Positions 2,797-10,754 of a stretch of 10,754 nt of DNA are shown in pieces (positions within the stretch are counted from its first letter, which is position 1; every line of letters begins with the position of its first letter). The DNA lies in the NCBI GenBank assembly GCA_964543975.1, contig CAZJBZ010000137.1, positions 1-10,754 on the forward strand, read 5' to 3'. A program made the translations under genes and the position numbers. The notes beneath the pieces were generated by a model. That model was not told the origin of the DNA, did not search any database, and worked only from the letters and a program-made list of their open reading frames with translations. Source of the stretch: an uncultured Spirochaetales bacterium. GTDB lineage: Bacteria > Spirochaetota > Spirochaetia > SPDA01 > CAZJBZ01.

Positions 2797-3339
2797 ATGG
2801 ACAACAATTGGAACGTTCTCTCGAAAAAGAAAGTGCTCGAAAGCGGTAAATTCCTTTCCGCTTTTCAACACACAATACAACTGCCGGACGGACGGACCAT
2901 CGACGACTGGATTTGGCTTTCGATGCCCGATTATATCAATGTCGTGGTAGTAGACATGTCCGGGCGGTTTATCATGCTTCGGCAGTCTAAATATGGAATA
3001 GAGGGACAATCCTACGCTCCGGTTGGCGGGTTTATCGAGCCGGGGGAAGAACCACTCTCCGCGGCAAAGAGAGAAACGCTGGAAGAGATTGGATACGAAG
3101 CGCCGCAGTGGACCTTTCTCGGAAGCTACCGTGTAGATCCAAACAGAGGCTGCGGGACTGCGTACGCCTATCTTGCGACCGGAGCGGAAAAAACCACCGA
3201 ACCGAACGCCGATGACCTCGAGGCTCAAGAGATTGTTTTTTTGAACCGGGTGGAGGTTGAAGATGCCCTCTATTCCGGTGGTTTTAAAGTACTTCCCTGG
3301 GCCAACAACGTGGCGATGGCCCTTTTATATCTGAAATAA
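2797..3339 (+). CDS. Nudix hydrolase, ADP-ribose/ADP-sugar pyrophosphatase-like
   Basis: Canonical Nudix box G-x5-E-x7-REUxEExGU is read in GFIEPGEEPLSAAKRETLEEIGY. The N-terminal region (W-x-VL-x4-V-x2-G-x-F...LPDGR...NVVVVD) resembles the NudF/ADPRase family N-domain. The ATG at 2797 is only 2 nt after the cyclase TAA (2792-2794), which indicates translational coupling. Confidence 0.8.
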   Translation: MDNNWNVLSKKKVLESGKFLSAFQHTIQLPDGRTIDDWIWLSMPDYINVVVVDMSGRFIMLRQSKYGIEGQSYAPVGGFIEPGEEPLSAAKRETLEEIGYEAPQWTFLGSYRVDPNRGCGTAYAYLATGAEKTTEPNADDLEAQEIVFLNRVEVEDALYSGGFKVLPWANNVAMALLYLK

Positions 3340-3340
3340 C

Positions 3341-3358
3341 TGAGGCAATTGCCACAGC
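3341..3358. repeat. 18-bp near-perfect palindrome CTGAGGCAATTGCCACAG (16/18; perfect 10-bp core GGCAATTGCC at 3345-3354) immediately after the Nudix stop codon
   Basis: Reverse-complement comparison is read directly from the sequence. There is no downstream U-tract, so this is not a canonical intrinsic terminator. Confidence 0.4.
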
Positions 3359-3515
3359 CCCCCTGCGATAGAAGCCCAACCGAGATTCAAAACCCGAAAA
3401 TCACATCAGGATAGATTATTAAATCGGGAAATAGCTTTGATCGAATTACTCTTTTCATAGACTGAGTGGAGTTCTGTTTTTTCCTTTCTTGCTTCAATGA
3501 ACACCCTCTACCAAA

Positions 3516-3592
3516 CTAATAAAAATCGAAAAAAAGGTTGTCAAAATTGTACTAATGTATTAAACTCATATTGTATTATGACATTAGTACAA
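3516..3592 (+). promoter_or_regulatory. Candidate sigma70-type promoter of the GntR operon, with an A-tract UP-like element and a perfect 12-bp inverted-repeat operator pair
   Basis: A-rich tract AATAAAAATCGAAAAAAAGG (3516-3535) precedes TTGTCA (3538-3543, -35-like). After a 17-nt spacer comes TAAACT (3561-3566, -10-like, 4/6). An alternative -10 is TATTAT at 3574-3579. Half-sites TTGTACTAATGT (3547-3558) and ACATTAGTACAA (3581-3592) are exact reverse complements. Together they give GTAC...N...GTAC, the GT-N-AC architecture typical of GntR-family operators. Confidence 0.45.
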
Positions 3593-3595
3593 TAG

Positions 3596-4012
3596 TTGGA
3601 GGATGGCGTGACTGAAAAGGATAATGAAAAAACGCTGGATTTTAGTCTTGATCCCAAAAGCGGTGTCCCTTTTTATAAACAGATCATACTCCAGATAGAG
3701 ATGGCAATTGCGGACGGCAGATTGGTTAGCGGAAATCAGCTGCCGACGGTCAGGGGGTTGGCGGTGGAATTGAAGATCAATCCGAATACGGTAGCCAGAG
3801 CGTACAATGAACTGGAAATCAGAGGTGTCGTAACCACCCAACAGGGTTCCGGCACCTTTATCAGCGACAAAAAAATTGAAATGAACGAGGTAGAAAGAGA
3901 GCGCGTTCTTTCCGAATTGACCCGCTCTTTTGTCACCACCGCCGGTTCGTACGGTTTTACAATCGATGATATTATCGATGCCCTGGAAGAGTATACCAGG
4001 GAAAACAGTTGA
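3596..4012 (+). CDS. GntR-family transcriptional regulator, YtrA-like subfamily (short C-terminal domain)
   Basis: Winged-HTH GntR signature QLPTVRGLAVELKINPNTVARAYNELEIRGVVTTQQGSGTFIS, with only about 50 aa C-terminal to it. The ORF track begins at TTG 3596. A better start may be GTG 3608, preceded by GGAGG (3598-3602) at 5-nt spacing. The stop TGA is at 4010-4012. Confidence 0.85.
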   Translation: MEDGVTEKDNEKTLDFSLDPKSGVPFYKQIILQIEMAIADGRLVSGNQLPTVRGLAVELKINPNTVARAYNELEIRGVVTTQQGSGTFISDKKIEMNEVERERVLSELTRSFVTTAGSYGFTIDDIIDALEEYTRENS

Positions 4013-4023
4013 GGAGGGAAAAT

Positions 4024-5151
4024 ATGGACCTTGTACAGAAAAAAATCAGTCGTATAAAAAACCTGCAGCAGAAAGCGTTGCAGCGGGATTTCAGCTACAA
4101 TGTTTTTTCTTACCTTGTTTTTGGATTATTTCTCACGGTGGGAATTCTGGTGCAACACATTCTCGATCCATCGGTGAGAACCGAAGAAATTGTCTGGATC
4201 GGCGGGGGGGCCATCGCTGTAGGAGTCATTCTCACGTTGGTGCCGCTCTGGATCATCGTTGTTCAATTGATAATCGCTGCATGGATCTGTATGTACTTCT
4301 TTTTTTCGTTCAATTTTTATCCGGTCTTTGTCTGGATTTCTTTAGGTCTTGTGTTCTCGGCCTGTTTCGAACTTATCTATCAATGGGACAAGGTTGTCAT
4401 CTTGCGGTTTGGAAAGTTTAAAAAGGTGCATGACGCGGGACTCTTCCTCTTAGTCCCCTTTGCCGACCGAATTGCCTCGTTTGTCGATACCAGAATCCGG
4501 GCCACCGATTTCAGCGCCGAAAAGACACTGACCAGCGATACGGTGCCGGTGCATGTCGACGGTCTCGCCTTCTGGATGATATGGGACGCAAAGAGGGCCA
4601 TTTTAGAAGTGGAAAATTTCGTGGAAGCCGTCACCCTTTCAGCCCAAACAGCACTGCGGGAATCGATCGGTAATCACGATTTGAATACACTGCTTACCAA
4701 TCGAAGGACCCTCTACAAGGAAATCCAGAGTGTTTTAGATACCAAGACCAATTCCTGGGGCATCACCATTCTCTCGGTGGAGTTCACCGACATCAATATT
4801 CCTCAGGGTCTTGAAGATTCGATGAGTAAGGTGGCCCAGGCCGAACGTGAAAAACAGTCCCGGGTCATCCTGGGTACCGCCGAAGTGGAGATTGCAAAGA
4901 AGTTTGCCGAAGCTTCGGAAAGCTACAAGGACAATGAAACCGCGCTCCACCTTAGGGCGATGAACATGATCTATGAAGGCATTCGGCAGAAAGGATCGAT
5001 GATCATGCTTCCCGCGTCCGCGCTGGATTCGATGAACTTGGGAACAGTAATGGGGACCGCCGCGTTAAAATCGATAGAAAGCGAAGCCAAGGAAGAGCCG
5101 TCGACTGAAACAGAGAGAGATGAAAATGAGAAAGGAGAACAAAAGAAATGA
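4024..5151 (+). CDS. SPFH/band-7 (stomatin/HflK-C/flotillin-like) membrane protein with a polytopic N-terminal region and an acidic C-terminal tail
   Basis: The N-terminal 120 aa hold 3-4 hydrophobic helices (YLVFGLFLTVGILV, IGGGAIAVGVILTLVPLWIIVVQLIIAAWICMYFFF, PVFVWISLGLVFSACF). An SPFH core follows (VVILRFGKFKKV...LFLLVPF...VDTR...TLTSD...LAFWMIWDAKRAILEVENF...ALRESIGNHDLNTLLTNR). The tail is Glu/Lys-rich. The track start at 4009 is a TTG overlapping the GntR stop. ATG 4024 is preferred because GAGGAGGG (4012-4019) lies 4 nt upstream. The stop overlaps the next start (ATGA, 5148-5151). Confidence 0.85.
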   Translation: MDLVQKKISRIKNLQQKALQRDFSYNVFSYLVFGLFLTVGILVQHILDPSVRTEEIVWIGGGAIAVGVILTLVPLWIIVVQLIIAAWICMYFFFSFNFYPVFVWISLGLVFSACFELIYQWDKVVILRFGKFKKVHDAGLFLLVPFADRIASFVDTRIRATDFSAEKTLTSDTVPVHVDGLAFWMIWDAKRAILEVENFVEAVTLSAQTALRESIGNHDLNTLLTNRRTLYKEIQSVLDTKTNSWGITILSVEFTDINIPQGLEDSMSKVAQAEREKQSRVILGTAEVEIAKKFAEASESYKDNETALHLRAMNMIYEGIRQKGSMIMLPASALDSMNLGTVMGTAALKSIESEAKEEPSTETERDENEKGEQKK

Positions 5152-5828
5152 TAAAGGTAGATAGCGTAATCAAAGATTATATCGCGGGGGAAACAACCGT
5201 CCATGCGCTGCGCGGGGTGTCGCTACAGGTTGACGACGGTGAGTTTATCTCGATAGCAGGCCCTTCCGGTTCGGGTAAGACAACCCTTCTCAATATCATC
5301 GGGTGTCTCGATTCGGCCGATGCGGGGAAAGTGTTTATCGACAATGAATTGGTGACCGAGAAAGACAGGCGGGAACTGGCCCTCCTGCGGCGTCGGAAAA
5401 TCGGTTTCGTGTTTCAGTCCTTTAATCTTATTCCCGTACTGACCGCGTATGAGAACGTGTCATTCTCTCTTTCGCTCTTAGGGATCGGGGATGAAGAAGT
5501 TTACGACAGAACGATGGATATGCTTCGAGAGGTGGGTTTGGAGACGATGGCCGATCGGCGACCGGCGGAACTGTCGGGCGGACAACAGCAGCGGGTTGCC
5601 GTGGCGAGGGCCCTGGTAAAGGACCCGCAGATGGTGCTGGCGGACGAACCGACTGCCAATCTCGATTCAAAAACGGGAGAAGACATTCTTGCTTTGATGG
5701 AGGACCTGAACAAGACCCACAACACGACATTTGTCTTCTCTACCCATGATCCCATGGTTATGGATTTTGCCCACCGTTTGGTACAGCTCCATGACGGTCA
5801 TATAACCGATGATAAAAGGAGGAACTGA
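5148..5828 (+). CDS. ABC transporter ATP-binding protein (LolD/MacB-NBD-like)
   Basis: Walker A GPSGSGKTT, Q-loop VFQSFNL, ABC signature LSGGQQQRVAVARAL, Walker B VLADEPTANLD, H-loop FSTHD. At 226 aa it is the typical size of a stand-alone NBD. It is coupled to the upstream gene by a 4-nt ATGA overlap and to the downstream gene by a 1-nt TGATG overlap. RBS AAAGGAG lies upstream. Confidence 0.9.
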   Translation: MIKVDSVIKDYIAGETTVHALRGVSLQVDDGEFISIAGPSGSGKTTLLNIIGCLDSADAGKVFIDNELVTEKDRRELALLRRRKIGFVFQSFNLIPVLTAYENVSFSLSLLGIGDEEVYDRTMDMLREVGLETMADRRPAELSGGQQQRVAVARALVKDPQMVLADEPTANLDSKTGEDILALMEDLNKTHNTTFVFSTHDPMVMDFAHRLVQLHDGHITDDKRRN

Positions 5829-7102
5829 TGAAATTCCTTCTCTCATTGGCATGGAAAAATCTGTTTAGACACAGACGGCGGACGATGATTACCGCGAGTG
5901 CTATAGCGGTTGGGCTGGCAATGTTTATCATGATGGAATCGATGCTTACCGGTATGAGCCGGGAGACGGAGCGGAACCTGGTATGGTACGAAACAGCGGC
6001 AGGCAAGATAATGACGCAACAATTCTGGGAAGAACGGGACCAGATGCCGCTGAAACACGCGATTGAAAATCCTGAACCGATTTATGAAACGCTGCGGGAA
6101 CTCGCTATACCCTTCACTGCCAGGACAGCATTCAGCGGCGAACTGATCGTACAGCAGGACCCCTTTCCCGAGCACGGATCGATGCAGCTGCAGTTCGTCG
6201 CCATCGATCCGGAAACGGACGGCAGAGTATTCAAACTGGAAGAGTCGGTTGCCGCGGGCCGGTTTCTTGGACCGGGAGAAAACGGAATCATGCTTGGAGC
6301 GTGGCTGGCCGGGGATTTGGGCGCGGAACCGGGGTATCCGGTAACAATCGTTACCAGGACCAAAACCGGGTTTTTTCAAACGGTAGACCTCACCGTTGTG
6401 GGAATTCTCAATACACCCAACCCGGTGATCAATCGGTCGATGGCTTTCATAACGAAGGAGACCGCTGATACCTATCTGCAGATGGAAGGGGCTGTCACCG
6501 AAATCGATCTTGGTTTTTCCGATTGGATCGAACCTGACCCTGTTGCCGAAACGATCGATAAAGCCCTGCGTGAAAGTGGGGCCGCTGCCGCAGCGGGCGG
6601 GAACGAATTGACGGTAAAGACGTGGGAAGAACTTGCTCAGGATTTTATCCGGATCGCAAGTGCGAAAGAAGTGGGAAGTAAGCTGATTCTCTTCCTCGTC
6701 TTTGTCATTGCTGCCGTGGGGATATCCAATACAATGCTGATGGCTGTGTTCGAACGTATTCGGGAGTTGGGAATGATGCGGGCGATGGGGATGGAAGACA
6801 GGCATATCCGCTGGAGTTTTCTCATGGAAGCGGGAGGGATCGGTTTATTAGGCGGTACAATCGGTGTCGTTCTCGGAGTGCTCATTAATATTCCTCTTGT
6901 CAATGTCGGTATCGATTTTTCGATGTTTGTCGAATCGATGGATATAGGATATCGGACGACGGGAATTATGCGGGGAATTTGGAATATCCAGACCATTGTG
7001 ACCGCTTTTTTTTCCGGGATTATTATCGCTGTCGTCATTGCGTTTATTCCTACTCGAAAAGCATTGAGGATGGAGATTACCGATTGCTTGCGGCATCAAT
7101 AG
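5828..7102 (+). CDS. ABC transporter permease, FtsX/MacB-fold (LolC/LolE-like), paralog 1
   Basis: N-terminus LSLAWKNLFRHRRRTMITASAIAVGLAMFIM (TM1) is followed by a large extracytoplasmic domain of about 220 aa. The C-terminal FtsX-type three-TM module follows (LILFLVFVIAAVGISNTMLMAVFERIRELGMMRAMGM...). At 424 aa it has the four-TM MacB/LolC-type topology. RBS AAGGAGG lies upstream. Confidence 0.9.
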   Translation: MKFLLSLAWKNLFRHRRRTMITASAIAVGLAMFIMMESMLTGMSRETERNLVWYETAAGKIMTQQFWEERDQMPLKHAIENPEPIYETLRELAIPFTARTAFSGELIVQQDPFPEHGSMQLQFVAIDPETDGRVFKLEESVAAGRFLGPGENGIMLGAWLAGDLGAEPGYPVTIVTRTKTGFFQTVDLTVVGILNTPNPVINRSMAFITKETADTYLQMEGAVTEIDLGFSDWIEPDPVAETIDKALRESGAAAAAGGNELTVKTWEELAQDFIRIASAKEVGSKLILFLVFVIAAVGISNTMLMAVFERIRELGMMRAMGMEDRHIRWSFLMEAGGIGLLGGTIGVVLGVLINIPLVNVGIDFSMFVESMDIGYRTTGIMRGIWNIQTIVTAFFSGIIIAVVIAFIPTRKALRMEITDCLRHQ

Positions 7103-7124
7103 CGGCATCTATAGGAGGCGTTAC

Positions 7125-8357
7125 ATGAAATTGCGTGAAATTGCATTTAGAAATATACGTAGGAACACCAGAAGGAGCATCCTCTCATTGAGCGCGATTG
7201 CGATAGCTTCTCTCACATTCGTGTTCCTCTTTTCTCTTCTCGGCGGGATGAAGGCCGATCTTGCGGAAAACCTTCACACCTACTACACGGGAGAGGTGAG
7301 GATACGAAATAGTGAATACAGTAAGTACGATTATCTCAATCCGCTTCACCTCAATGTCTCATCACCGGAAGAGGTGATAGAACTGGTAGAAAACAACGCG
7401 GCGGTGGATTTGGTCTCTCCCCGTGTACAATTCGGAACAGGTATTTACCGGGAGGGGAATACTTTTCCGGCAATTGGGATGGGAGTGGATTTTACCCGGG
7501 AGCGAAAGTATCAAGATTTGGAGCGGAATTTGGTCGAGGGGACCGTCCCATCCAACGGCAGGAATGAGGCCCTTATTGCCAAAGGACTATCCGAAGAGAT
7601 CGGAATCGGGGTGGGAGATAAGATGACACTGTTAACAAAAACTATGCGGGGCGGAACGAACGCAATCACCTTGACCGTAACGGGGATTGTCTCGTTTCCC
7701 GTAGCGGGGCTCAACGGAAGACTGTTTTTAGCCCCGCTCGACCGGATGCAGTATTTTCTTCGGATGAATGAGGGGGCCACGGAAATCCTTTTGAAACTTG
7801 CCCCCGAAGAGGAGAGTGCCGAGACCGCCGAGCGGCTTACTGCCGTTTTCAAACGGGCTGGTAGGGAAGAACTCATCGCGGAATCGTGGCGAAACATGAG
7901 CGAAACCTACAGTGCGATACAGATAGGGGACACTGTCTACACCATTATGGCGTTTCTCTTTTTCATATTGGGCAGCACCGTTATTATCAATACGACAATG
8001 ATGGTAGTCTACGAGAGAACAAAGGAGATAGGGACAATCTCGGCAATGGGGATGACCGGACCGGAAATCGTCAAACTGTTTTTTCTGGAAGCTTTTTTTA
8101 TCAGTGTTATCGGTTCGGCCCTCGGAGTCATCCTCGGAATAGGCATAACAATACCTATTGCCCATACGGGATTGAACTTTGGAGATGCGATGGAAGGGGT
8201 GGACATGGAGATGTCACCTGTTTTTTATCCTGTCCTGAATTTGCGCTCGACGGTTTTCGTCTTTTTCTATTCGACAATCGTCGCCTCGCTTGCCTCCTTT
8301 ATCCCTTCCCGCCGGGCCGCCAAAATCGAGCCGGTGGAGGCATTGCGGATGATTTAA
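7125..8357 (+). CDS. ABC transporter permease, FtsX/MacB-fold (LolC/LolE-like), paralog 2
   Basis: N-terminus EIAFRNIRRNTRRSILSLSAIAIASLTFVFL gives the same architecture as the upstream permease. The C-terminal FtsX module is AFLFFILGSTVIINTTMMVVYERTKEIGTISAMGM.... RBS AGGAGG lies 7 nt upstream of the ATG at 7125. Confidence 0.9.
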   Translation: MKLREIAFRNIRRNTRRSILSLSAIAIASLTFVFLFSLLGGMKADLAENLHTYYTGEVRIRNSEYSKYDYLNPLHLNVSSPEEVIELVENNAAVDLVSPRVQFGTGIYREGNTFPAIGMGVDFTRERKYQDLERNLVEGTVPSNGRNEALIAKGLSEEIGIGVGDKMTLLTKTMRGGTNAITLTVTGIVSFPVAGLNGRLFLAPLDRMQYFLRMNEGATEILLKLAPEEESAETAERLTAVFKRAGREELIAESWRNMSETYSAIQIGDTVYTIMAFLFFILGSTVIINTTMMVVYERTKEIGTISAMGMTGPEIVKLFFLEAFFISVIGSALGVILGIGITIPIAHTGLNFGDAMEGVDMEMSPVFYPVLNLRSTVFVFFYSTIVASLASFIPSRRAAKIEPVEALRMI

Positions 8358-8393: not shown

Positions 8394-9173
8394 ATGAAAC
8401 GACGAAATATGATACAATCCACGAGAGCACACATGAATCTCAGCCGCATCCTGTTGGCTGCGGCTTTTTTTGTCATCGCTGCAGGCGCCGTGTGGGCGCA
8501 GGATGTTGACCGGATACTTGAACGCATGGAAGGGAACAGGATCCACGAAACGTCCCGCTCTGAAGGGAAGATGATCATCGAAGACCGTTTCGGTAAGAAG
8601 GTCAGTACGTTTATCTCGTACAGCAGGGGTGCGGAAGAGAGTCTTGTCGAGTTCACTTCAAAACAGGAGCAGGGGCAAAAAATACTGCGTACCGAAGATG
8701 AAATCTACCTCTACTATCCTGACGCGGAAGAGATAATCCGGATGCAGGGTTCGGCACTGCGTGAATCGGTCTTGGGCTCCGATTTCTCATACGAGGACAT
8801 GACGGGGGAAAAGAGTATCCTCGACACCTTCGAGCCGAAACTCCTTGGAACGGAAACGATAGATGGGCACGATTGCTATAAGATCGAGCTAAAGGCGAAA
8901 ACACGGAATGTACCCTATCCTAAAGAGATTGTCTGGGTCGATAAAGATCGATATATCGCGTGGCAGGTGCATAAGTTTTCCCTCTCCGGAAAGCTTCTGA
9001 AAGAGATGACGGTCCATGAGGTAAAGGAGGTGAAGGGTAAAGTAATTCCCACCCACATGACGATGGTCGATACCATGAAAAAGAACTCAAGTACCGAACT
9101 GATCATTGAAGAGATGAAAATCAATGTCTCACTCGATCCTTCTCTCTTCTCATTGGAGGAGCTTACATGGTGA
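8394..9173 (+). CDS. Secreted periplasmic protein resembling the LolA-fold 'outer-membrane lipoprotein-sorting protein' family
   Basis: Signal peptide MNLSRILLAAAFFVIAAGAVWA|QD has no lipobox Cys. The mature part is about 225 aa, beta-rich, with motifs I associate with LolA-like/DUF-type lipoprotein-sorting proteins (RFGKK..., GSDFSYEDM, IDGHDCYKIELKAK, VWVDKDRYIAWQVHKF). RBS AAGGAG lies 7 nt upstream of ATG 8394. A possible alternative start is ATG 8433. The family assignment comes from memory of motif patterns and needs an HMM check. Confidence 0.65.
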   Translation: MKRRNMIQSTRAHMNLSRILLAAAFFVIAAGAVWAQDVDRILERMEGNRIHETSRSEGKMIIEDRFGKKVSTFISYSRGAEESLVEFTSKQEQGQKILRTEDEIYLYYPDAEEIIRMQGSALRESVLGSDFSYEDMTGEKSILDTFEPKLLGTETIDGHDCYKIELKAKTRNVPYPKEIVWVDKDRYIAWQVHKFSLSGKLLKEMTVHEVKEVKGKVIPTHMTMVDTMKKNSSTELIIEEMKINVSLDPSLFSLEELTW

Positions 9174-10453
9174 GAGGAAGCTTCTTTCGAGCACCTTGCC
9201 GTGCCGTACTCTGCGGTTTCTTCTTATTGTTTTTCGCCGGTCACGGGTTCGCGGAAAATGTTGTCTCCGTCGATCTTCGACCCATGCTCTCATTAGCAAG
9301 AACACCGGAAAACGATGGGAGTGAGTGGCTCTTTACCGCTCTTGGTGATGCAGGCGTTACCTTTTCCTCGAGAGGCAATAAGAATGTTAAGGCGGAGCTT
9401 GACTTGGACCTGACGGTAGGGCAAAACGTCCTCTTTGATGTTTCTCGTGCCTATATCAAGGTGCGGTTCCCCTGGTTCAGGTCGGTCCTGGGTAAAAACC
9501 GGATTTCCTGGGGCGAAGGGGTGATGTTCAACGCCGGCGACTTGATCGCCCCATCTTCCGGTTTCTCAACAGATTTGACACAGAGTGTTTTTCACGATGC
9601 CGGAGTCTGGATGGTTGAAGGATACATTCCGTTAGGCCGTTTCGCTTTTGCGGAGATCGTGGTGCTTCCGCCTGTCCCCACTTTGTTCCCTGTCGAATTG
9701 ACTACCGCATTGAGCCAAGCCGTGTCCGGGGTGCCCGGCGAGGCCGACGGAACACCTCCTCCAGAATCGGTGGCCGGTCTTACCCTCCCCTCAATAGAAG
9801 AAACAGCGTTGGGCGGAAGGATCTACCTGAAACCGCTGGGCATAAAGACCGAGGCGGGATATCTTTTCGAAGGCGCACAAGAAGCAGTCAATATGAAGCA
9901 TCGGCCCTACCTCAGTCTGCAGTGGCATCTACTGGTCGATTGGCAGGTTTCCGCATCAACGATCATTCCTGGTGAAGCGAGCGAAGGAAAAGAGTTATCT
10001 GAGGAGGCGTGGGAGAATACTGAAATAAGCTGGGGCCTCTTTCACATGCACAATTTTCGTCGCGGCGGTTCAATATCCTTACGTCTGGAGAGTACGGTCC
10101 GGCCGGCCGGTTCGTGGGAGCCGATAGAACACTCGGTCGAAAACGGTACCGTCACTGCGATCGAAGGGCCCGAGGAAACGGAGTCGGGGGAGCGAAGCGG
10201 AGAACAATACGGTATCCTCCTCTATCCTGAGGTCGTCATAAGCCCGACTTCCTCGCTTTCGTTCATCGGACGGAGTGTCTTTTCTCCTATTGATGCCTCC
10301 GGTCTGGTTACGGTCGGTACAAGCTGGAATATCTATCAAGGGTTTACCTTGTTGGGTTTCGTTTCCGTTCAAGGAGGCGGCCCGAAAGACCTTTTCGGCT
10401 GGGACAGAGCAGGTGATTTTGCCGTCAACCTGGGAATGGAGTTTACTTTTTAG
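9167..10453 (+). CDS. Putative outer-membrane beta-barrel protein (signal peptide; C-terminal aromatic residue) of unknown function
   Basis: Signal peptide MVRGSFFRAPCRAVLCGFFLLFFAGHGFA|EN. The protein ends ...NLGMEFTF with a terminal Phe, the classic signal recognised by the OMP-assembly machinery. The sequence is rich in alternating hydrophobic/polar stretches and Gly/aromatic residues. Its start overlaps the upstream stop by 7 nt (ATGGTGA), and GGAGGAG lies 5 nt upstream. Confidence 0.6.
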   Translation: MVRGSFFRAPCRAVLCGFFLLFFAGHGFAENVVSVDLRPMLSLARTPENDGSEWLFTALGDAGVTFSSRGNKNVKAELDLDLTVGQNVLFDVSRAYIKVRFPWFRSVLGKNRISWGEGVMFNAGDLIAPSSGFSTDLTQSVFHDAGVWMVEGYIPLGRFAFAEIVVLPPVPTLFPVELTTALSQAVSGVPGEADGTPPPESVAGLTLPSIEETALGGRIYLKPLGIKTEAGYLFEGAQEAVNMKHRPYLSLQWHLLVDWQVSASTIIPGEASEGKELSEEAWENTEISWGLFHMHNFRRGGSISLRLESTVRPAGSWEPIEHSVENGTVTAIEGPEETESGERSGEQYGILLYPEVVISPTSSLSFIGRSVFSPIDASGLVTVGTSWNIYQGFTLLGFVSVQGGGPKDLFGWDRAGDFAVNLGMEFTF

Positions 10454-10633: not shown

Positions 10634-10754
10634 ATGAATCCAAGGATAATCCACTCCCTGAAAAAGAGCATGAGGGTTTTTTCATTCCTACTCTTGATTT
10701 TTATTCCTGCTGTTAGCGGTCTGTCTCAATCGACATCCGAGCCTGCGGAGCGGT
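10634..10754 (+). CDS. Partial (5' end only) gene for a secreted/exported hypothetical protein; it continues beyond the window
   Basis: ATG 10634 is preceded by GAGG (10624-10627) at 6-nt spacing. The open frame runs to the window end without a stop. It translates to MNPRIIHSLKKSMRVFSFLLLIFIPAVSGLSQSTSEPAER, i.e. a positive n-region plus a hydrophobic core, which is signal-peptide-like. A 180-bp AT-rich gap separates it from the upstream operon, suggesting its own promoter. Confidence 0.4.
   Translation, partial: MNPRIIHSLKKSMRVFSFLLLIFIPAVSGLSQSTSEPAER

Follow-up and report, generated by a model that had tools for sequence, protein, structure and literature searches.

The question addressed here is how lipids and lipid-anchored molecules are delivered to and across the outer membrane (OM) of diderm bacteria without LolB, notably spirochaetes. 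The closest described analogue of the system reported below is the DUF1329/DUF1302 pair of Proteobacteria (Sama_1588-1591, PP_0765/0766, AmeABCD), for which several functions have been proposed. DUF1302 is an 18-stranded barrel with an Acinetobacter Occ channel and AlgE as its top structural matches; it usually adjoins DUF1329, a protein of the LolA fold, and an AlphaFold-Multimer complex of the two reached an ipTM of 0.84 (PMC13499233). In several bacteria, DUF1302 and DUF1329 show cofitness with a resistance-nodulation-division (RND) protein and a BNR protein, and export of an envelope component was proposed (10.1101/072470). The DUF1302/DUF1329/RND set AmeABCD has been linked to monoterpene tolerance, with efflux as the proposed function (PMC6394551), and P. 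putida mutants in DUF1302/DUF1329 genes show fitness defects with fatty esters as carbon source (10.1101/2020.07.04.188060). In spirochaetes, the Borrelia cluster BBJ23-BBJ29 encodes a MacB-like ATP-binding cassette (ABC) system, a LolA-like protein and a barrel, for which it was proposed that a non-polar ligand is exported (PMC13078400). Here we describe a carrier-barrel gene pair on a contig of an uncultured Spirochaetales bacterium (GenBank assembly GCA_964543975.1, contig CAZJBZ010000137.1), analysed over its whole 10.7 kb (10,754 nt, hereafter the window). The first gene encodes a periplasmic LolA-superfamily carrier (8394..9173, 259 aa, PF17131 LolA_like/TP_0789-like), the second an 18-stranded OM beta-barrel of a hitherto undescribed Spirochaetota family (9167..10453, 428 aa). 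The barrel is a new, unannotated OM protein (OMP) family, and the module to which both belong is a new ABC-driven Spirochaetota version of a known carrier-plus-barrel class for which only putative functions have been put forward.

In common with DUF1329/DUF1302, the spirochaete pair consists of an adjacent LolA-superfamily protein and 18-stranded barrel tied to an inner-membrane exporter, and Occ channels and AlgE are among the best structural matches of both barrels. The spirochaete barrels are smaller (~345-430 aa versus 480-600 aa for DUF1302), the carrier is of the short PF17131 type (~250 aa) instead of DUF1329, a MacB-type ABC system takes the place of the RND protein as energiser, and the BNR protein usual in the proteobacterial sets has no counterpart in the module. 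Membership in DUF1302 (PF06980) is not claimed, given that none of 49 members of the spirochaete family matched PF06980 at E<=1. With hhalign, the two families aligned at non-significant probabilities of 6% and 2%, the DUF1302 side consisting of only 1-3 close sequences, and the alignment was limited to a motif before and in loop L3 (FRLTxGKTRLSWGEG versus FDFRxGRQHIVWGEM in DUF1302). We thus treat the spirochaete barrel as a positional and structural counterpart of DUF1302, not as a member, and possibly as a very distant relative. BBJ23-BBJ29 shows the same combination of ABC system, LolA-like protein and barrel within spirochaetes, but has an Omp85-superfamily barrel domain, a homodimeric permease and tetratricopeptide repeat (TPR) proteins, and is plasmid-borne; no relationship between the two barrels was detectable.

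Using the solved carrier homologue NE2245 (PDB 3BUU; E 4.5e-18) as an entry into the carrier loci of other lineages, we found in Nitrosomonas and Nitrosospira a cluster with the full five-part complement of the spirochaete module: one ABC ATPase and two FtsX permeases, together with a PF17131 carrier and, as the barrel, a DUF1302 protein. The Nitrosomonadaceae genes are arranged in divergent units, whereas the spirochaete operon is co-directional with coupling of carrier and barrel, and the cluster lacks a GntR or SPFH gene. Its flanks encode Acetyltransf_5 (PF13444)/FeeM-type N-acyltransferases and a fatty-acid desaturase (L084, 8890-9657; L085, 354-1187, 8925-9938 and 10996-11739; L086, 8823-9644). 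Going by these flanks, the cargo of the Nitrosomonadaceae version may be an N-acyl amino-acid or ornithine-type lipid, and the acyltransferase and desaturase neighbours provide a hint at a lipid cargo for the whole class.

The spirochaete pair closes a conserved ABC-FtsX-FtsX-carrier-barrel operon, a context that an earlier note on this DNA, made from the sequence alone, had overlooked. In the window, a run of seven genes on the plus strand is separated by overlaps of 4, 4 and 1 nt and gaps of 22 and 36 nt, followed by a final overlap of 7 nt between carrier and barrel. It starts with a short GntR-family regulator (138 aa, 3596..4012; PF00392, E 1.6e-17) and a membrane SPFH/Band-7 protein, an accessory part of the module (4009..5151; PF01145, E 3.3e-32), and continues with an ABC ATPase of the MacB/LolD/DevA type (5148..5828; PF00005, E 1.6e-33). 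Two FtsX/MacB-type permeases follow (both PF02687 and PF12704), namely permease 1, with four transmembrane segments and a periplasmic MacB_PCD domain (5828..7102), and permease 2, which is closer to the Lol type (7125..8357).

When 185,579 species genomes were scanned for a sequence pattern, 80 barrel loci were returned, all of them from Spirochaetota, including Marispirochaeta, Sphaerochaeta, Thalassospirochaeta and many uncultured Spirochaetales. As far as this motif-dependent scan reaches, the barrel family is small and found only in free-living members of the phylum. The window proteins were mapped onto these loci, and loci with at least 900 nt, 4.7 kb or 6.3 kb of upstream DNA served as denominators. 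The carrier gene is located directly upstream of the barrel gene in 74/74 loci, the full ABC-FtsX-FtsX-carrier-barrel set is present in 60/61, and GntR and SPFH genes occur together in 45/56. The two most divergent barrels (26-27% identity) reside in the same operon. The single exception to the full set is a locus from a high-GC member of the Spirochaetia (L079, 7210-9233), where carrier and barrel overlap by 4 nt but the ~7 kb of upstream sequence searched contained neither ABC nor FtsX genes; the most indivisible unit is therefore the carrier-barrel pair and not the whole operon. The adjacency in 74/74 loci, which bears out the expectation that the two genes are conserved together, and the conserved coupling described below led us to reject a chance neighbourhood of the barrel as well as its reading as a generic porin. 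Carrier and barrel form a functional unit that is genuine and under strong selection.

The carrier gene ends with ...ACA TGG TGA, and the two genes share the bases 9167-9173, from the barrel start codon ATG (9167-9169) to the carrier stop codon TGA (9171-9173). The earlier note had reported this 7-nt overlap (ATGGTGA) as a hallmark of tightly co-regulated products, and the open reading frames (ORFs) and shared bases are exactly so; with an alternative barrel start GTG at 9170, the overlap would still be 4 nt. A Shine-Dalgarno (SD)-like element, GGAGGAG (9155-9161), is positioned 5 nt ahead of the barrel ATG within the last carrier codons, and together with the barrel ATG and the carrier TGA it forms a translational-coupling junction (9155..9173). 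A 7-nt overlap was found in 58/79 junctions (start codon ATG in 47, GTG in 10 and TTG in 1) and a 4-nt overlap in 10/79, with gaps of 1-10 nt in a further 10; an overlap of either length is thus present in 68/79 junctions, across proteins that are only ~34% identical. The junction consensus is CTG GAG GAG CTN ACA TGG TAA, with the SD core in 62/79 and an A or G as the wobble base that creates the barrel start codon in 66/79. The sequence that encodes a conserved C-terminal peptide of the carrier, F-S/T-L-E-E/N-L-T/S-W (FSLEELTW; 9146-9173 in the window), also contains the SD element and start codon of the barrel; at its wobble positions, G is preferred within CTG and GAG, and A or G ahead of TGG. 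Since the same sequence serves as carrier peptide and as translation-initiation region of the barrel, constraints at the protein and the translation level are superimposed, which points to selection on a coupled, fixed-ratio synthesis of both proteins. Judged by this sequence pattern, the overlap is more than chance, and the tight co-regulation suggested by the earlier note is borne out as conserved translational coupling.

That the second protein is an OM beta-barrel, as had also been proposed, is upheld by its structural model, which confidently predicts 18 strands in canonical OMP topology and speaks against a soluble or non-barrel protein. A type I signal peptide (aa 1-29, cleaved after ...GHGFA and before ENV) is directly followed by the first modelled strand at residue 30, and the C-terminus ...GMEFTF is typical of OMPs. 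No Pfam or NCBIfam model matches the barrel, and the family profile gave no match to PDB sequences at E<=10. According to a strand-parity analysis of the alignment, the strands have one hydrophobic and one polar face, and the invariant charged residues R100, E163, R218, E229, R306, E308, E355 and R369 all face the lumen. All long loops occupy extracellular positions, and the periplasmic turns comprise 2-5 residues, with FPWF, RF and QG as conserved turns. Loop L3 (aa 112-146, 35 aa; 9500..9604) is long, ungapped and conserved, with the family signature SWGEGxxFNAGD; in this region G109, G118 and N122 are invariant and W115, G116, F121, A123, G124 and D125 near-invariant. By analogy with porins, L3 probably folds into the barrel lumen. 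The conserved charged lumen and L3 together suggest that a polar moiety passes through the barrel or is bound there. Loops L4 and L7 are variable and insertion-rich. With 428 aa, the window barrel is longer than most of its relatives (~370 aa) and carries acidic or proline-rich insertions in L4 (9668-9805, aa 168-213) and L7 (10100-10213, aa 312-349); in the family alignment these columns are ~50% gaps, and their predicted local distance difference test (pLDDT) values are low.

The closest structures to the barrel are ChiP, Occ/OprD and maltoporin; AlgE was also matched, and OmpC-MlaA complexes were among the Foldseek matches. The L3 region is the only part with weak similarity to Wzi and DUF1302. 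An assignment to Wzi (PF14052; PDB 2YNK) is not made, as the window protein gave no match and 16/49 relatives, matching over the same region as in the similarity to DUF1302, remained below threshold (best E 0.0012); in one of them, P0094, the match reached 15.4 bits against a cutoff of 30.1. Wzi possesses an N-terminal helical domain that closes the periplasmic end, a domain missing from the spirochaete barrel, whose strands begin right after the signal peptide. Capsule genes, which form the context of Wzi, were found neither in the window nor in the related loci.

The carrier matched PF17131 with 185.7 bits (cutoff 30, E 8.4e-55) over 183/184 profile positions, and it has the unclosed beta-barrel, LolA-type fold common to the solved members of this family. 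Its N-terminus, MKRRN...LLAAAFFVIAAGAVWA followed by QD, reads as a Sec signal peptide cleaved after ...AVWA. A lipobox cysteine is absent, the first 160 of the 259 residues being free of cysteine, and the carrier is predicted from these features to be a soluble, non-lipidated periplasmic protein. It is not a canonical LolA: there was no match to Pfam LolA, the LolA1 model scored 13.9 bits against a cutoff of 100, and no sequence match at E<=1 was obtained to solved LolA structures, including Borrelia LolA. Many carrier orthologues show a weak precomputed match to MucB_RseB (PF03888), a similarity much weaker than that to PF17131 carriers. Among the relatives of PF17131 type are the solved P. 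gingivalis LolA3 (9TP6) and T. pallidum TP0789, the namesake of the family. For Bacteroidota LolA3 and for TP0789, unlike for the spirochaete carrier, no linked barrel has been reported, and a literature search on TP0789 and its neighbours returned nothing on function. TP0790 is an AcrB-like RND protein (PMC8407342), and TP0789 presumably lies next to it, going by the locus numbering alone. An RND neighbour that recalls this apparent pairing is present in locus L082 (1-3174), where a divergently transcribed TetR regulator and an MMPL/RND transporter are encoded beside the most divergent module copy.

Both permeases contain the FtsX transmembrane domain and the MacB periplasmic core domain, and MacB is among their best solved relatives. 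Of all solved proteins, permease 1 is closest to YtrF (3.9e-14), followed by LolE, and permease 2 to LolF (1.1e-19), aligned over residues 82-408. Against the lolCE model (cutoff 362.45), permease 1 scored 95.8 bits and permease 2 127.1 bits. The best NCBIfam matches of the ATPase, DevA with 219 bits (cutoff 296) and LolD with 213.5 bits (cutoff 307.75), were likewise below their cutoffs. LolCDE also combines two different permeases with one ATPase, and the canonical Lol system (LolCDE, LolA, LolB) shares with the spirochaete module a type VII ABC complex, a soluble LolA-fold carrier and the logic of extraction, shuttle and acceptor. The OM partner differs, being the LolA-fold lipoprotein LolB in the canonical system and an integral 18-stranded barrel here. 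As the Lol equivalog models and all tests for a canonical LolA were missed, the module is Lol-like in logic but is not the Lol pathway. MacB tripartite pumps use a MacA/HlyD adaptor and a TolC-like duct, neither of which was found among the nine window ORFs or the called genes of the six loci with gene tables examined; the module contains a soluble LolA-fold protein instead.

The permease complement of the module is variable, as indicated by extra FtsX genes in several loci. An extra FtsX gene (6555-7802) is inserted between carrier and barrel in L065, and an extra FtsX-type permease gene follows the barrel directly in the Sphaerochaeta loci L047, L058, L059, L063, L067 and L072 (~1.0-2.4 kb after the barrel start). 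Two extra permease genes are located downstream of the barrel in L078 and L080, and one upstream of the GntR gene in L046 (5.6-6.8 kb upstream). Candidatus Marispirochaeta associata JC231 harbours two module copies on different contigs (L014 and L015), one with and the other without GntR and SPFH genes, and in L005 a cyclase-like match replaces GntR-SPFH upstream of the ABC gene.

Starting from the observed gene content, gene order, coupling, folds and co-conservation, we tentatively read the pair as the downstream half of an accessory, Lol-like module for envelope export that is complete in itself, a role we consider quite possible, if short of probable. The ATPase and the two different FtsX permeases, a heterodimeric MacB/LolCE-type complex of type VII, would use ATP to extract an amphiphilic or lipidic cargo from the outer face of the inner membrane. 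This ABC complex would load the PF17131 carrier, with the LolF-like permease 2 as the likelier docking partner, and the carrier would cross the periplasm and deliver the cargo to its dedicated barrel. There, in what would be a physical contact between carrier and barrel, the cargo would reach an OM acceptor or exit channel, and its polar part would pass the charged lumen constricted by L3. We infer that the cargo may most likely be an endogenous envelope lipid, a glycolipid or a lipid-anchored molecule and not the bulk lipoprotein pool. Translational coupling would keep carrier and barrel in a fixed ratio, and the short GntR regulator and the SPFH protein would be frequent add-ons. In the five-gene unit, three groups come together that had been treated apart until now, namely the "lipoprotein-sorting" proteins of PF17131, the DUF1329/DUF1302 pairs and extractors of the MacB type. 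If the hand-over from carrier to barrel is real, it would represent a widespread, uncharacterised principle of envelope transport, for which the spirochaete version offers a clean genetic handle since the pair sits in one operon and the barrel is simple, with few additional domains. If it is not, the barrel still constitutes a new, unannotated OMP family of Spirochaetota.

Several points weigh against an export module of this kind. The spirochaete operon has no conserved gene for a cargo or for biosynthesis, and the short periplasmic turns leave the barrel with no obvious docking domain for the carrier. As modelled, the barrel is similar in fold to substrate-specific diffusion porins, for which no carrier is required, and the YtrA-like repressor would fit a stress-induced detoxification at least as well as constitutive envelope biogenesis. 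The direction of transport is itself something that we infer, and we know of no PF17131- or DUF1329-carrier plus barrel system with a biochemically proven function. A more far-reaching version of the proposal, which we hold to be rather unlikely, is that the barrel is a new kind of OM translocon, one that receives lipid-anchored cargo (a glycolipid or a surface lipoprotein) straight from a LolA-fold chaperone and displays it on the cell surface. If true, the operon would cover the entire path between inner membrane and cell surface independently of LolB, and it would be the prototype for a class of LolA-like carriers with 18-stranded barrels that includes DUF1329/DUF1302 of Proteobacteria.

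Apart from an endogenous lipid, the same shuttle might carry exogenous hydrophobic or amphipathic toxins, that is, xenobiotics or antimicrobials, with the barrel as exit pore and the GntR repressor as stress sensor. The permeases match MacB, and MacB-type pumps commonly export toxins and antibiotics. The operon contains no biosynthetic genes and begins with a short GntR regulator that, by the length of its C-terminal part only, appears to be YtrA-like. In B. subtilis, antibiotics that target the cell envelope induce the YtrA operon (PMC12772383), and the YtrF protein of that operon is the solved structure to which permease 1 is closest. The monoterpene tolerance associated with AmeABCD (PMC6394551) points in the same direction. 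However, the regulator is missing from 11/56 loci, no inducer or resistance phenotype is known, and drug efflux, which as a rule runs through a continuous adaptor-TolC duct, seldom involves a soluble carrier of the lipid type. We therefore regard inducible efflux as unlikely, yet on account of the YtrA-like regulator stress-induced detoxification stays a serious alternative to the export of an endogenous envelope component.

An inward or retrograde traffic is less likely, and indeed quite unlikely. Following a logic as in Mla or FadL, the barrel would admit a hydrophobic nutrient or OM lipid, the carrier would move it inward and the ABC complex would insert it into the inner membrane. The structural proximity of the barrel to the substrate-specific uptake channels ChiP, Occ/OprD and maltoporin is consistent with such a role, as are the OmpC-MlaA complexes among its Foldseek matches and the fatty-ester defects of P. 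putida DUF1302/DUF1329 mutants (10.1101/2020.07.04.188060). On the other hand, PF17131 is not a family of solute-binding proteins, and no catabolic genes are linked to the module in the window or in related loci. To our knowledge, type VII (MacB-fold) ABC systems act only as extractors, exporters or mechanotransducers and not as importers, with which an importer role would be at odds.

The earlier note had offered the barrel as a possible functional analogue of LolB or, alternatively, as a substrate-specific channel for the cargo of the carrier. It had also stated that no LolB is encoded in the window, and Pfam and NCBIfam profile searches indeed gave no match for a LolB-like gene there. The 428-aa protein is no LolB in kind, being an 18-stranded transmembrane barrel with a type I signal peptide. 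A general lipoprotein-sorting pathway of the lineage, in which the barrel replaces the missing LolB as OM acceptor, could draw on the lack of a detectable LolB in spirochaetes (PMC11326224), on the parallel of an ATPase, two permeases and a LolA-fold carrier to LolCDE-LolA, and on LolF as the closest relative of permease 2. Nevertheless, the carrier is not a canonical LolA, the LolCE and LolD equivalog cutoffs were missed widely, the barrel family is small with detections only in free-living Spirochaetota, one genome holds two copies (L014 and L015), and the operon sits behind a repressor. Moreover, an essential canonical LolA is conserved in spirochaetes, including environmental ones, and its own LolB-like loop has been credited with the insertase step (PMC11326224). 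The deletion of lolA3 in F. johnsoniae caused no detectable phenotype (PMC11885536), which is relevant here only if Fjoh_0605 belongs to PF17131. General sorting through this module thus appears very unlikely, and the LolB substitute is poorly supported. The channel alternative fared better: by analogy with the DUF1329/DUF1302 precedent, which it matches, a dedicated OM channel or acceptor for the cargo of the carrier is the favoured reading.

It is likewise less likely, and about as improbable as general sorting, that the module is no transporter at all. The ABC-FtsX complex would then act as a mechanotransducer, like FtsEX and possibly YtrEF, and the carrier as a lipid sensor, like RseB/MucB, that gates or regulates the barrel. 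YtrF as the best solved relative of permease 1 and the weak PF03888 matches of many carrier orthologues would agree with this, but the operon encodes neither a hydrolase nor an anti-sigma partner, and the carrier resembles PF17131 carriers far more closely than RseB/MucB. Finally, also less likely and most improbable is that the barrel itself is the cargo and the LolA-like protein its private chaperone on the way to the OM: only the strict pairing and the translational coupling speak for it, OMPs generally travel unfolded via Sec, periplasmic chaperones and the beta-barrel assembly machinery (BAM), the cavities of LolA folds bind acyl chains, and an inner-membrane ABC extractor, co-conserved in 60/61 loci, would have no role for an OMP released by Sec.

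The remaining features of the window, whose nine genes are all co-directional, concern the surroundings of the module. Upstream of it, a CHASE2-domain adenylate/guanylate cyclase of 902 aa (86-2794) and a NUDIX hydrolase (2797-3339) are encoded on the plus strand; no link of this pair to the module was established. An intergenic gap of 256 nt (3340-3595) precedes the GntR gene and contains a sigma-70-like promoter match on the plus strand (3538-3566; 9/12 in a consensus scan), which is weak evidence, as promoter and terminator scans of the region returned site numbers no higher than in shuffled sequence. An Rfam scan of the window gave no family match. Downstream, the gene after the barrel differs in L001, the only locus checked in this respect, where a DUF5312 gene is located on the opposite strand. 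In the window, a partial ORF (10635-10754) with a signal-peptide-like N-terminus (MNPRIIHSLKKSMRVFSFLLLIFIPAVSGLSQ...) starts 181 nt past the barrel gene and runs off the contig.

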